The translations under genes and the position numbers were made by a program. The notes under the pieces are model-generated. The model saw nothing but the letters and a program-made list of their open reading frames with translations. It did no database searches and was not told where the DNA came from. This document shows, one piece after another, positions 32,579-45,183 of a stretch of 64,000 nucleotides of DNA. Each line of letters opens with the position of its first letter. Positions within the stretch are counted from its first letter, which is position 1. This DNA is from Eledone cirrhosa (Eukaryota). The stretch covers positions 27,838,001-27,902,000 of the forward strand of contig OZ024756.1 in assembly GCA_964016885.1 (NCBI GenBank), given 5' to 3'.

Positions 32579-32674
32579 GACATATTACAATCGTTTCTCT
32601 GGCGACCAGCTCGAGGCGCGATCGATGAGATGATCGAACCTGACTCTGAAAATCGCAAGGTCTTCAGATATGTC
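32579..32674 (-). ncRNA. Type-I hammerhead ribozyme motif with extended stem II
   Basis: GACAUAU CUGAAGA [63-nt stem II] GAAAC GAUU GUA AUAUGUC; 7-bp stem I. Inverted partial copy at 32684-32767. Confidence 0.85.
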
Positions 32675-33039
32675 TTGATTCTACGAGCTGGTCGCCAGAG
32701 AAACCATTGTAATATGTCCAATAAATTCCATTCGTCGCACCACTGATTCTCTCTTTTTCTCTGATATATATATATATATATATATATATATATATATATA
32801 TATATATATATATATATATATATATATATATATACATATATATATATACATATATATATATACATATATATATATATATATATATATATATATATATATA
32901 TAAAGTTACTTTTTGTTCACCAAAGTGAGCACTCGATGCGTAGTCTCCAGTATGTATATTAGGGTTGTATTAAGCAGAGTGTAATATTAATAATAAGTAT
33001 GGACGAAGTGCCAAATTTTCATTAAGTTTATTCAGGCGT

Positions 33040-33118
33040 GACGTACGTTTCACACTTGATCAGTTCAAGGTTCAATCTCTAATGACCAGGCCCGACTCTG
33101 GAATCAAAAGCTCTTCGG
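33040..33118 (-). ncRNA. Extended-stem-II hammerhead motif, degenerate (CCGAAGA core, stem I 5' strand lost)
   Basis: CCGAAGA GCUUUUGAU..AUCAAGUGU GAAAC GUAC GUC followed by AAUAAA. Confidence 0.65.
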
Positions 33119-35291
33119 GTTTCTTTTAGTTTAATATATATTCTCTATTACTCTATTACGTGTTCCAGCCGACAAGCTGAGGCCATGATGGGGCATATAT
33201 ACTGGGGATTTACAACTTTTTTTTTTTACAAACGAAGAAAAATGTACTCAATACATGAAATAAAGTTTATATATTTTATTAGGAGCTGAATTTTCTTTCT
33301 TCGTTATAATGAGTTCCGCGTTAAGGACTATGTTATATTGGGGTCGATTCATCCTTACGAGGTCGATAAAATAAGGTACCAGTCGTGCACTGGGGCATAT
33401 TTAATCGACTTTCCCCCTCCCCCCCAAATTGATGGCCTTGTTCCTATATAAGAAACCATTAAATCCCGCCGAGGTTAACTTTGCCTTTCATCCTTACGGG
33501 GGTCGATAAAATAAAGTACCAGTAATGCACTGGTGATGATTGCTGGCCTTGTGCCAATAGTAGAAACAATTATATTTATGTACACACATCTATAAATTTG
33601 TAGCTACAATAACGAACACACGAGAGAGAGAGAGAGAGAGAGAGAGAGAGAGAGAGAGAGAGAGAGAGAGTGAGGAGAGAGAGAGAGGGGGGGGAGAAAG
33701 AAAGAGCGAGCGGGGAGAAAGAAAGACCGAAAGAGCGAGGGAGAGAGAGAGAGAGAGAGACCGACAGACAGACTTACTGACAGACAGAGTGACTGAAGAG
33801 ATATAGCCAGGGCGGGCGGATCACGTTACTCGTTCTTGTATGGGACACCTATCTGATATTTTCTTAACTAAAGTCATGTCGTGAATGTAACTTAACTGTG
33901 GTCAGACATACTTCACATACTGCCTTCAATTCCTTCACGTTTGACCCATAAATTATTGATCCTGTTCATTGATTGACCATACTTTGAGAGATTACAACTT
34001 GTTCCGACGTCTCTCTCTATATACACACACACACACACACACACACACACACACACACAGACACAGACACAGACACACACACACACACACACACACACAC
34101 ATATATATATATATCACGATAAATTAACGGAGGCATAGGCCGTTATTTACGCTTTAATTTATATTTTTAATTATCGTGTCTATAGTCTGCCTTTCATAGG
34201 TTATAGATTCCATACACTGGTGGTTTTTTCCCTGTATTATTGATAATGCACTATATATCTCTCTCTGGTGTGTTACCTTCTCAACATATTATATATATAT
34301 AGATATATATGTAAATATATTATATATATATATATATATATATATATATATATATATATATATATAAACGCACATATATCTATACCCATTTATAAAACAA
34401 TAAGGTAAGTGACTTTGTTTTAAACTTTATTTACACACCTGTATTTTAGCGTCATGTTTCCGATATCTGCATATCTATATCTATATACTATATATGTGTA
34501 TATATATATATATATATATATATATATATATATATATATATATATACATATATATATATATATATATATATATATATATTGTAGCATATATCTATATATA
34601 TATATATATATACATATACATATATGCTACAATATACATATGTATATATAAATATCTGTATATGTATATATATGTATATGTATACACAAACACACACACA
34701 CACACACATACACATGTATATGTATACACAAACACACACACACACACACACACACACACACATACACACACACACATATATATATATATATATATGTTAT
34801 AATGATTTCTTTATTAGCCACAGAAGAAAGTGGTGGTGTTGCAGAAAGAATTGTAACCAGGTTTGATCAATAAATTCTTGATGTAACACCCAGACTTTGT
34901 TCTTATTATATACACAGTGTTCTAGCATTGAGTGCTGACTTTGGCTTCCTCACCAGTTCTCTACGGTTTTACTTAACCTTTTGTGCGTGTGTGTAGTTTA
35001 TTACGGCTAAGCCACTGGCTTGTTACTTAGAAGTTTCCCGTACATGGTGTAAATTTCTTGATGAAATTTCAGGCAGCTTCCGTCAACTCGATATAACTTA
35101 TATGAAAGATGCCACGGTCACTTGGCTATACACACGCACACGCATTAGATATATATCTTGTCATTTCTTGGACTAGTATATATATATATATATATATATA
35201 TATATATATATATATATATATATATATCAGACAGCCTCCAAAAGTAATGGTTGTATTTTAAAGGGTACGTCAAACTTATTTGTAAAACTGT

Positions 35292-35356
35292 TATTTTGTC
35301 TGATGAAGGCATACCATAATTTAATGTGGTATCCCTGAAATATGTATAATGAAATA
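35292..35356 (+). ncRNA. Type-I hammerhead ribozyme motif
   Basis: UAUUUUGU CUGAUGA aGGcAUACCAUA..UGUGGUAUcCCU GAAA UAUGUA UA AUGAAAUA; same family as 16886. Confidence 0.8.
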
Positions 35357-35829
35357 AATATGGTTTTATAAATATAGTTTCCATTTATTAATATCGTATA
35401 TATATATATATATGAAGGACAAACTTTTTTCATATGTAACCCATTTGCAACTCCGCAGCGCCCTTATTATCATATATATATATATATATATATATATATA
35501 TATATATATATATATATATATATATATATATATATATATATTCCTTACCACACTTCCTTCGTTTTTTATATATATATATATATATATTAAATTCAAATAT
35601 TAATAAAATAGATGTTCTTGTGATCAATTAAATTTTATTATACCTATTTCAGAGGTACTTGAATCAGTTCAATAGAAAGTACTCATCATATATATATATA
35701 TATATATATATATATATATATATATATATATATATATATGTAGGAGGTGAGTTTTTATTGTAGTACAATAAAGCAATGCAGATATCGGATAAGAAGCACT
35801 CTACAGTTTGTAGGACTGGAGTATACATA

Positions 35830-42466: not shown

Positions 42467-42829
42467 TGTATGTATGTATGTATGTATGTATGTATGTATG
42501 TATGTATGTATGTATGTATGTAAAAACTTAATACATGTGTTCGCTTATCAAGCGAAAAATAACAACACTTTTAACGGGTTCTCTGCCAGCTCCACCCTGC
42601 CACCGTGACATCTTGGCCACCACTACTTGCGAATGTTGTGCCTAGTGTTTCAGTTTGTCAGGGTCGTTCAATTTTAATTGACCTACCCTATTTCAGTCCT
42701 TTGAAATGTGCAGTTAGAATATATGTTCAATGTAAGTTGATAGATGTCTAGAAAAAGAGATGGGGTGAAATCTGGTTGTTCGCAAATGTGAAAATACCAC
42801 CGAAAGGCTCGTCCTATAAGAGTTGAGAG

Positions 42830-43198
42830 CATGAAAATACACTCTTGGCAGGTGCAATGTGTCTGAACACGGAAGAGCCGAACGCCTACCGTCATCGCCC
42901 CCAACTCCCCCCCCCCCACCCCATCTCTGTGTATCGTGAGCAAATGGATCCCACGTGCTGGCCTCCCCACTGCCCCAGCGGACAAAAGGAAGAAGGCATT
43001 TCCCCTGGAGGATGGTAAGGGAAATGCGTTGGAAGAACCATTCCATCTCGCGAGGCTCCCACCCGCGGCTGGCCAGCTCAGCGCCTATGGTGGTGAGTAA
43101 GGAGGTAGCCCTAGGGCCAACGACACCAGAAGTCTCCACTGCCAAGGGGCACTACCGCATACTTGTCGGAGAGCGACCGGTACTTGGAGAGTTTGCCG
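42830..43198 (-). mobile_element. CRE-like RLE retrotransposon 3' fragment
   Basis: AVETSGVVGP..EPREMEWFFQRISLTILQG. Confidence 0.8.
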
Positions 43199-43694
43199 CT
43201 ATTGTTGGTGCTTTTGCGGCGTAACACCAAGGGAGAGGGTTTAATAACCGTGAGATTCAAACCCGGAGATTATCATAAATACTTTTTTTTTGACTCTTAA
43301 ATGTTTTAAGTGATGTTTGCTGACAAGGATTTCAAATTGTTTTGAAGCAATGTGCGTGCGTGCGTGCGCGTGTGTGTATGTGTGTGTGTGTGCGTGTGTG
43401 TGTGTGTGCGTGCGTGCGTGTGTGTGTATGTGTGTGCCTTTTTTTGTTTTGTTTTGTTTTGTTTTGCTGCTTTTTTCAGGTGTTTTTCTTGTTTGTTGGT
43501 TGGTTTTTGTTGTTGTATTCGAGCTTAAATATATGTCTTTAAATAGCAAAAAACGCCAAGTACAAGTTAGACGTAATTACATACATGTGCGCGCATCCCC
43601 ATATACATATTGGGTCGTCAAGTATGAAATTTGTAGAAACTTGTTTTTCTGCTACACATTTCTACAAATTTCATACTTGACGTACCAATATATT

Positions 43695-44668
43695 CACAGA
43701 CACCCTTACACGTATTCACACACATTCACTCACAGACACCCTTACACGTATTCACACACATTCACTCACAGACACCCTTACACGTATTCACACACATTCA
43801 CTCACAGACACCCTTACACGTATTCACACACATTCACTCACAGACACCCTTACACGTATTCACACACATTCACTCACAGACACCCTTACACGTATTCACA
43901 CACATTCACTCACAGACACCCTTACACGTATTCACACACATTCACTCACAGACACCCTTACACGTATTCACACACATTCACTCACAGACACCCTTACACG
44001 TATTCACACACATTCACTCACAGACACCCTTACACGTATTCACACACATTCACTCACAGACACCCTTACACGTATTCACACACATTCACTCACAGACACC
44101 CTTACACGTATTCACACACATTCACTCACAGACACCCTTACACGTATTCACACACATTCACTCACAGACACCCTTACACGTATTCACACACATTCACTCA
44201 CAGACACCCTTACACGTATTCACACACATTCACTCACAGACACCCTTACACGTATTCACACACATTCACTCACAGACACCCTTACACGTATTCACACACA
44301 TTCACTCACAGACACCCTTACACGTATTCACACACATTCACTCACAGACACCCTTACACGTATTCACACACATTCACTCACAGACACCCTTACACGTATT
44401 CACACACATTCACTCACAGACACCCTTACACGTATTCACACACATTCACTCACAGACACCCTTACACGTATTCACACACATTCACTCACAGACACCCTTA
44501 CACGTATTCACACACATTCACTCACAGACACCCTTACACGTATTCACACACATTCACTCACAGACACCCTTACACGTATTCACACACATTCACTCACAGA
44601 CACCCTTACACGTATTCACACACATTCACTCACAGACACCCTTACACGTATTCACACACATTCACTCA
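43695..44668. repeat. Perfect 36-bp tandem repeat, about 27 copies
   Basis: Unit CACAGACACCCTTACACGTATTCACACACATTCACT. Confidence 0.98.
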
Positions 44669-45084
44669 CACACACACACACTTACACACATTCACACACA
44701 CATGTACGTGTGTCAAATACGTATCTGTACATATACAGTGCTAGGATTAATCCAACTTACCCTACTTATTCCAACTCCCCTGCTTATTAACCCCACCACG
44801 GCTATCCCCTCCCCCTTATTATTGGGGACCCGAGAGAATGTTGCAACACATCCAGAAACACATTTAATTATATCAATCGGTTCCTTCTATTGTGTCCAAC
44901 CCATGCTAACTCAAAGCACCCCATCCAGCAGACTGTAACTTTTACACATCAACGAAGGGGTGTCTACGTTGTCGCTCGACCTGCTAGAAATGTTTGAAAA
45001 ATAAACCTCATTTGGTCAATCCATGAGAGTATCTTGGTCAGCCTATCAACTTTTCACACCTTCGATTACACATTGTTGGATCAC

Positions 45085-45183
45085 ATCACTAGTCTGAAGA
45101 GTAGATCGATAATGGAGTCGGGTCCATAACTTCTAAAGGTCACCATGAGCCAATCCTCTGCGAAACGCGCGTAACATGTCGAT
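45085..45183 (+). ncRNA. Extended-stem-II hammerhead ribozyme motif
   Basis: CUGAAGA (45094-45100) GUAGA..UCUGC GAAAC GCGC GUA (45162-45173); imperfect stem I. Confidence 0.75.

Follow-up and report, generated by a model that had tools for sequence, protein, structure and literature searches.

A conserved internal-loop module in the long helix II of hammerhead motifs from a Hydra-clade Penelope-like retrotransposon lineage of Eledone cirrhosa

A stretch of 64,000 nucleotides from Eledone cirrhosa (GCA_964016885.1, contig OZ024756.1, positions 27,838,001 to 27,902,000; the whole stretch is called the window) contains hammerhead ribozyme motifs whose helix II is expanded to a domain of 57-63 nt with a nearly invariant internal-loop module, 5'-GARUCNG/CYYGAGC-3' (11 positions). 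The motifs are the decayed 3' ends of one lineage of Hydra-clade Penelope-like retrotransposons (PLEs). Judged from sequence, the accessory module is real and has been strongly selected. The ribozyme is of a known kind and the retrotransposon clade a known one, and the function of the module is predicted. A first-pass annotation of the window had quoted four such motifs and proposed a conserved accessory domain on hammerhead helix II. The motifs are real and lie where it placed them, the long stem II is confirmed, and the domain is under selection, with compensatory changes in the flanking helices. The same annotation spoke of a domain 'grafted' onto the ribozyme; nothing in the analysis indicates grafting. 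The published systems cited below are compared through those parts of each paper that were covered.

The genome (3.0 Gb, 1,796 contigs) holds 4,576 exact matches to a pattern joining the hammerhead core to AGTC and GAR-N12-GAAAC-N4-GTH, and none to the reversed pattern. The pattern made no demand on helices IIa, IIb and IIc, and 25 of the 27 distinct matches among the first 30 loci keep them. Among the matches listed from other DNA the same three-helix test is passed by 0/113 (metagenome) and 1/94 (viral). The motif is not a product of chance, because the reversed pattern gives no match and the helices are kept here but rarely in the control sets; the metagenome and viral matches listed do not fold as the motif and were rejected as carriers. 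A second search, for the 3' core plus a conserved tail hairpin and blind to the module, has 3,819 matches against 0 for its control. A generic long-stem pattern (18,885 versus 837) was dropped as a count, being inflated by a chance match in an RTE long interspersed nuclear element (LINE). This abundant RTE-type LINE (L112-L132) fits the hammerhead core pattern through its YADD codons. A 'CTAGG' family was considered as long-armed and not counted, since its inner CUGAUGA leaves a spacer of 20 nt.

From own-genome loci 242 distinct motif sequences were parsed; 199 form 15 clusters of at least three, treated here as subfamilies, and the remaining 43, one of them a LINE false match, stood alone or in pairs and were left out. 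Because some clusters are close sisters, the 15 represent about ten independent lineages. Folded freely, the helix II domains of all 15 consensuses form one and the same 2x1 loop. Helix IIa, of 8-9 bp, comes first and is separated from helix IIb by a 5' bulge of 1-3 nt or a small loop; helix IIb closes with G-C. Beyond AR opposite G stand the pairs U-A and C-G, a pyrimidine bulge that may be absent, a helix in which one G-C is fixed, and the apical hairpin, which varies. With the flanks included, the minimum-energy fold keeps the module in 11/15 consensuses. In real representative copies 84.6% of helix cells are paired and 21/29 pairs have changed on both sides; no shuffle in 500 matches these values and slid controls pair at 26-36%, in a control that takes no account of relatedness. 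The two-sided changes include 5/6 stem I pairs and 7/8 helix IIa pairs. RNAalifold recovers helix II and the loop but neither stem I nor stem III. Helix IIa is imperfect, with a mismatch or wobble at pair 4 in 12/15 subfamilies and a mismatch at pair 1 in 5/15. Stem III is an invariant 2 bp, its loop self-complementary at 14/15 and 11/15 positions. The spacing from GAG to GAAAC is 12 nt in every consensus. All 15 also have AWUAAA past the predicted cut site, at +6-8 in 11 subfamilies and at +12-14 in four, a shift of 6-7 nt that leaves the position of the module unchanged.

The pairs of the module itself (G-C, U-A, C-G and the further G-C) never vary among the 15 consensuses. They therefore have no covariation support of their own, and covariation is limited to the flanks; the 'covarying module' of the first-pass annotation holds for the flanking helices and not for the module's own pairs. 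Parsimony on the consensus tree needs 1 change over the 11 module positions (G to A in s7/s8), with s14 entered as AGUC (2 of its 3 copies came from the non-G search; as called, it has A), against 3.1 changes per position at the 28 helix positions of stems I and IIa on the same tree. It is scarcely probable that the module is functionless and common by descent only. As such an explanation would have it, the module is restricted to a single lineage and absent from other Hydra elements. At the helix rate, however, about 34 changes are expected where one is found (Poisson P 5e-14, overstated given the subfamily sampling), and identity across the consensuses is 96% in the module but 51% in the apical part that it encloses and 46% in helix IIa.

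Invariant pairs cannot prove pairing, and the fixed letters include GU, +5 G and a terminal AG, as the splice signals of a retained intron of 31-35 nt (GUCNG...YYGAG) would; retained introns near the hammerhead are known in PLEs (PMC4209133). We regard such an intron, or a promoter motif acting at the DNA level, as very unlikely. The AAUC clade turns GU to AU and the acceptor would be GAG; no spliced-form copy occurs in 436 loci (1.47 Mb), nor is such a joint listed in four contig sets, a weak point; the contigs of two organisms there barely cover the stretch. For intron and promoter alike, both halves are complementary in register within covarying helices.

Most subfamilies were found with patterns demanding AGTC or GAR, and as these require part of the module, exceptions were searched for. 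A non-G at the second loop position gives 390 matches, made up of scattered mutants and the AAUC clade. Double changes of the G-C closing pair (15 matches) and of the U-A pair (12) are scattered copies, chance matches or another family; decay of 4-5% per site predicts about ten of them. The only sample free of module-pattern bias is that from the 3' core and tail hairpin. Among its first 30 loci, GAGC or a one-letter variant stands exactly in register in 24, two are rearranged or truncated, and four are a sister family with a branched arm of 83 nt and no module. The 12-nt spacing to GAAAC recurs in 24/26 non-sister loci, and the 5' strand (n=20) reads AGUC in 13, AAUC in 5 and mutants in 2. 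Inserted copies decay at the module (4.4%) much as in the stem (5.4%; 66 copies of three subfamilies, after a mismatch filter), from which it follows that selection acted on active elements.

In the window the strings quoted by the first-pass annotation are all found, in copies named A, B, C and D. Full copies consist of stem I, CUGANGA, a domain of 60-63 nt, GAAAC, a four-base loop, GUH and stem I. The covariance model finds copies A-D and one that the annotation had missed, an inverted half of A at 32684-32764 (+), and no others in the window. The inverted second arm is a typical PLE insertion structure. The features are as follows.

32579..32674 (-): copy A (subfamily s0), full type I hammerhead, 87.6 bits with the covariance model
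32674-32668 with 32585-32579 (-): copy A stem I, 7 bp
32667-32661 (-): copy A core CUGAAGA
32660-32598 (-): copy A helix II domain, 63 nt
32640..32646 (-): copy A module 5' strand GAGUCAG
32609..32615 (-): copy A module 3' strand CUCGAGC, 12 nt between its GAG and GAAAC
32597-32593 (-): copy A GAAAC, followed by loop GAUU; predicted cut after GUA (32586)
32572..32577 (-): copy A AAUAAA, 8 nt past the predicted cut site
32504..32526 (-): copy A tail, the start of the conserved tail hairpin (ACUCUG...), ending early at the (TA)n junction
32684..32764 (+): insertion A, second arm, inverted and 5'-truncated; hammerhead 3' half and AAUAAA, (TA)n end
33034..33124 (-): copy B (subfamily s3; motif 33118-33040), decayed hammerhead, 69.6 bits
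33098-33092 and 33069-33063 (-): copy B module strands; helix II domain 60 nt
33040 (-): copy B cut site GUC, with AAUAAA at 33032-33027
32929..32980 (-): copy B complete tail hairpin (ACUCUG...AUCGAGUGC), likely the region where reverse transcription starts
40493..40553 (+): copy D (subfamily s10; start approximate), 5'-truncated, 24.5 bits, apical hairpin present
40511-40517 (+): copy D module 3' strand
40529-40540 (+): copy D GAAAC-GCGC-GUC, with AAUAAA at 40548-40553, then (TA)n
45086..45183 (+): copy C (subfamily s1), full hammerhead, 58 bits, domain 61 nt
45094-45100 (+): copy C core
45115-45121 and 45144-45150 (+): copy C module strands
45162-45173 (+): copy C GAAAC-GCGC-GUA

Copy B is a decayed copy, since its core is CCGAAGA (U4C) and 4/6 stem I pairs are broken; copy C has a C run in place of AAUAAA. 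The loop had been described as a retained AG opposite a purine beside a retained bulge. The purine is G in 15/15 consensuses, the A of copy B being a copy-level mutation. AG is mostly kept, its G having become A in one clade (2/15 subfamilies), and the 3' pyrimidine bulge is kept except in subfamily s12.

The core, GAAA, A15.1-U16.1 and an NUH cut site are present in copies A and C and in 15/15 consensuses. By sequence the motif is a type I hammerhead with an open stem I and three helices, and self-cleavage is predicted. It departs from the canonical loop I-loop II contact with a 4-bp stem II and a short loop: the domain is 57-63 nt long and stem I has no fixed bulge. A core variant, CCGANGA (U4C), recurs in the s4/s8 group (the set L160, L175, L185, L663, L667, L672), and an extra A follows the core (CUGAAAGA or CUGAAGAA) in s7; both may be fixed subfamily variants. 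Rfam gives no hammerhead match for copies A and C at E<=10, and the best of eight further loci scores 19.7 bits, where the curated score is 34. Focused Rfam scans of copies A and C identify neither a hammerhead nor a hairpin family; in the scan of the whole window the best 150 of 353 matches are dominated by (TA)n microRNA matches. Comparison with Rfam, which the first-pass annotation had proposed, leaves the module-bearing domain unmatched, and the domain is undescribed in the literature searched.

The host element, left unnamed by that annotation, is identified as a Hydra-clade PLE from several features. The copies have 5' truncations, frequently an inverted partial copy, AWUAAA past the cut site and a (TA)n end. 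The (TA)n run lies mostly 50-62 nt past the predicted cut site (median 53; 112/242 copies have a run in reach). At nine loci the motif is preceded, on its own strand and at a distance of 1.2-2.3 kb, by an endonuclease 66-100% identical to a reference C-terminal GIY-YIG; other upstream matches stand 0.6 and 3.4 kb away, with a partial match at 1.3 kb and a degenerate match at ~1 kb. Three loci (L181, L185, L188) have a broken reverse transcriptase (RT) besides the endonuclease, with the motif 1.5-1.8 kb downstream. As in Hydra elements, one ORF carries the RT followed by the C-terminal GIY-YIG, and the motif lies in cis. At L503 the motif is 202 nt before the ATG, in the 5' repeat, and the RT is 43-62% identical to that of L193. 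Across module-bearing subfamilies the proteins are 43-80% identical. They carry the Hydra marks SDKTGN (DKT), RMRWRAF (RWR for RWK), CNCRAGTQCP (CxCX5C linker), CRLC and CRH; CCHH is absent and one cysteine lies inside GIY-YIG. Naiad identity was considered for the (TA)n targets and rejected, as the endonuclease is C-terminal. Pfam gives no family at threshold for the Hydra proteins, and only repeat-type or sub-threshold matches for the 17 longest plausible frames of the window. The open reading frame (ORF) region is ~2.8 kb and the 3' untranslated region (UTR) 1.3-1.9 kb, so that the element is not of the short, <3 kb kind. Linkage of motif to ORF is direct for s0, s4 and s5 and weak for s8, s9 and s11; the subfamilies of copies B, C and D are tied to the ORF-linked ones through the common motif and tail hairpin only. 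No intact copy of this lineage turned up among the loci covered.

The tail hairpin (ACUCUG...AUHGAGUGC) begins ~57-67 nt past the cut site and has a 2-nt bulge and a spacer of 6-58 nt. Fourteen of the 15 subfamilies have it (s12 showed no tail), as does the sister family. Starting at the usual (TA)n junction, it is likely the RT start site. Its ACUCUG, ~57 nt past the cut site, could pair with CAGAGU of the module 5' strand, which would unfold helix II and silence the ribozyme of the template. Complementarity is 6/6 in 10/14 consensuses with a tail, and the UGG clade pairs through G-U wobbles. Against this, the AAUC and AAG clades show no compensatory change, the duplex is worth only -1.4 to -6.3 kcal/mol versus the local hairpin, and ACUCUG persists in the sister family that has no module; a long-range switch of this kind is highly improbable.

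The arm of this lineage is one of several lineage-specific helix II expansions in the genome, each with its own loop. The sister family (L653, L660; G000:C1:14064922 and 23199975) has loop III UCGA and the same tail hairpin; its branched helix II domain forms a three-way junction (-37.6 kcal/mol in L653). A CAUG-loop family has an arm of 48-59 nt with a CUC/AAAA-type loop, and another family a 60-nt arm with a different loop. Long-armed families (48-60 and 47 nt) with internal loops of their own occur at L235-L246, at L254, L541, L543, L544 and L547, and at L181:447-512. As these arms carry other loops, long arms are recurrent here and the module is confined to one lineage. A young Hydra family (L602:969 (+), L604, L605) has copies 97-99% identical, with open frames of 713 aa and a protein ~40% identical. 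Its hammerhead has a 5-bp stem II with a tetraloop and GAAAC-UA-GUA and lies upstream of the ORF; no motif was detected in its 3' UTR of >1.5 kb. Compared with this 713-aa family, proteins of the module-bearing lineage (L175:2607-4487) have long low-complexity insertions (~170 and 70-100 aa) flanking the WFNAP motif.

The window contains other features. At 36890-36902 (-) and 38995-39007 (+) lies a head-to-head, (TA)n-flanked repeat with GAAAC-UUAAG-GUA; within 110 nt upstream no CUGANGA is found, and the pair is possibly a permuted hammerhead. A short abundant repeat at ~22720-23020, 40200-40320 and near 51665 also follows many hammerhead copies elsewhere in the genome, with which it probably shares the (TA)n target. 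A tRNA-like match at 9319-9387 (-) (39.6 bits, over the Rfam threshold) is possibly the head of a short interspersed nuclear element. At 6504-6571 there is a near-perfect inverted repeat of 31 bp.

Published Hydra-clade hammerheads (Craig et al. 2021, PMC8557442) resemble those described here in being type I motifs near the 3' end of an element with a C-terminal GIY-YIG, and the elements share DKT, the CxCX5C linker, CxxC/CxH, (TA)n targets and a short palindromic stem III. There, however, stems II are 3-7 bp with loops of 3-10 nt (7 bp and 8 nt in Hydra-1_oBim) and the elements are <3 kb, whereas here a 57-63-nt domain with a fixed internal loop sits in an element of ~4.5-5 kb. The core search of that study would miss this form because its spacer was 7-17 nt. 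Four module 8-mers give chance matches only in the PMC8557442 supplement, where line breaks may hide some. Metazoan PLE hammerheads (PMC4209133) share terminal repeats, opposite-strand pairs, a dimer-type stem III, many sequence families per genome and a helix II above canonical size; their 'larger than usual' helix II is 6-8 bp, and the part of that paper covered describes no accessory domain. In viral hammerheads, too, a 'long helix II' means 6-8 bp (PMC13725137). PLE-X1_sMoe and PLE-X1_sTam (File S2, PMC8557442) have a long helix II region marked as non-canonical (9 bp and a loop of ~35 nt in sMoe), and PLE-X1_sMoe is a long-arm precedent; both differ in being single examples of endonuclease-less plant elements, for which the table reports neither a conserved loop nor covariation. 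In the literature searched, neither this module nor a ~60-nt helix II in animal PLEs was found; Lunse et al. 2017 and the PMC4209133 supplements, which lie outside it, could hold long-stem examples.

Hairpin-ribozyme, kink-turn and sarcin-ricin readings of the module were rejected. Loop A of the hairpin ribozyme (PMC8216279) is similar in that AGUC/YGAG mimics N-1/G+1/U+2/C+3 facing N7/G8/A9/R10, here upstream of GAAAC. It differs in that position 11 is C for G in 15/15 consensuses, +1 is A in one clade (2/15 subfamilies), one subfamily has 4x3 and not 4x4, and a loop B strand is missing. For loop B (A38, U41, U42) there is no such string in 8/15 consensuses, and the other seven have only AT-rich, differing strings. 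The kink-turn consensus has tandem sheared G-A pairs beside a 3-nt bulge; here the bulge is followed by covarying Watson-Crick pairs. The sarcin-ricin or loop E consensus is AGUA opposite GAA, and ARUC opposite GAG stands here, where a partial geometry of the bulged-G type is conceivable.

Of the functions that the first-pass annotation had listed, protein binding and a tertiary contact remain the two live ones. We tentatively favour, at somewhat below even confidence, a site bound by a protein, the RT-endonuclease of the element itself being the most probable one. Watson-Crick pairs that stay fixed on either side of an asymmetric, purine-rich loop would point to a partner that reads sequence, and an equally fixed RNA partner in stem I was not found among the subfamily consensuses. 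A protein is preferred to docking in stem I because stem I varies freely and AWUAAA moves while the module does not. The differing loops of other PLE lineages are as expected if each loop were recognized by its cognate protein. In the Anolis PLE, cutting by the hammerhead requires the element's protein, and insertion copies are templated by uncut RNA (PMC11167929). That element, Poseidon PAc, is alike in having the hammerhead upstream of the RT start hairpin and in copies made from uncut RNA; it belongs to another clade, its ORF starts inside stem II, no long arm is described in the part of the paper covered, and the protein dependence shown for PAc is hypothetical here.

According to the proposed mechanism, two motifs would pair through the palindromic loop III into an active dimer that cuts tandem transcripts at GUA/GUC. 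Dimer cleavage is suggested by the 2-bp stem III and palindromic loop, since other PLE hammerheads so built cleave as dimers (PMC4209133, PMC6765202). Insertion templates would be RNAs uncut at their last hammerhead; because the copies include sequence past the cut site, their templates were uncut or re-ligated there. Protein binding would take place at the AR/G loop, 12 bp away from the core, with a second contact at the tail hairpin, where copying would start. These contacts would govern folding and cutting of the ribozyme, with selection acting on active elements and inserted copies left to decay. Engineered allosteric hammerheads (aptazymes) carry a ligand-binding domain on stem II. The present arm resembles them in linking a recognition-type loop to the core through an imperfect helix, and differs in that it is natural and its allostery hypothetical. 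The fixed core spacing and the imperfect pairs of helix IIa would suit a coupling of binding to cleavage. A natural aptazyme, in which the loop is a protein-sensing domain on stem II and binding of the element's protein switches self-cleavage on or off, is nevertheless an unlikely extension of the favoured reading. On that reading, different PLE lineages in one genome would each have evolved a lock of their own for their own protein.

Several points weigh against the element's own protein. A stem II of 5 bp suffices for transposition of the young Hydra family, and the module is absent from the sister family, which has the same tail, so the module is not needed by Hydra proteins in general. That the module is invariant while RT identity is 43-62% would be just as expected with a constant host protein or an RNA contact. 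The Anolis protein has been suggested to help by binding the RT start site, not stem II (PMC11167929). The fixed 12-nt spacing to GAAAC is also needed by a tertiary contact. G-U replaces G-C at the closing pair in 4/24 module-blind copies, and the dependence of most subfamilies on patterns demanding AGTC or GAR bears on the invariance itself.

A tertiary contact is possible, if less probable than a protein site: the loop adenine and guanines would dock in the minor groove of an extended stem I. Such docking would take the place of the canonical contact between loops I and II and make protein-free cleavage faster. The receptor sequence need not be fixed for minor-groove docking. The fixed register between GAG and GAAAC, kept also in loci chosen without the module, is in keeping with this. 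Many subfamilies are predicted to form a helix in distal stem I (z < -1.64 in 6/15), its own pairing being worth -7.5 versus -5.4 kcal/mol for the cross-paired alternative. In natural hammerheads stems I and II make contacts, for which the length of the stems is important (PMC3088659). Yet stem I varies strongly, 9/15 subfamilies have a distal part that does not exceed shuffles, the only fixed flank motif near the core, AWUAAA, shifts in four subfamilies, and the loop stands ~8 bp more distant from the core than loop II does in the canonical form.

A host protein acting in export, 3'-end protection or as a chaperone is a distinctly unlikely partner, though a constant partner would explain why the module is invariant while the element proteins diverge. 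The cut site lies upstream of AWUAAA in 15/15 subfamilies, so the cleaved arm would be the 3' end of a unit-length RNA without AAUAAA, and Cervera and de la Pena (PMC4209133) proposed host factors for weak PLE hammerheads. Other PLE lineages of the same host, however, have unrelated loops or none, and no known host motif is matched in Rfam.

Short-stem-II descriptors and Rfam models miss thousands of such motifs per genome. With 11 positions fixed while the helices around them covary, the lineage is a well-delimited target, and the same genome supplies natural controls: the short-stem Hydra family, the sister family with another arm and the A-for-G clade. It bears on two open questions, why PLE hammerheads cut poorly alone and how the last hammerhead stays uncut as template. 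A protein-mediated gate on cleavage, if that is what the loop provides, would parallel in nature the aptazymes engineered on stem II.

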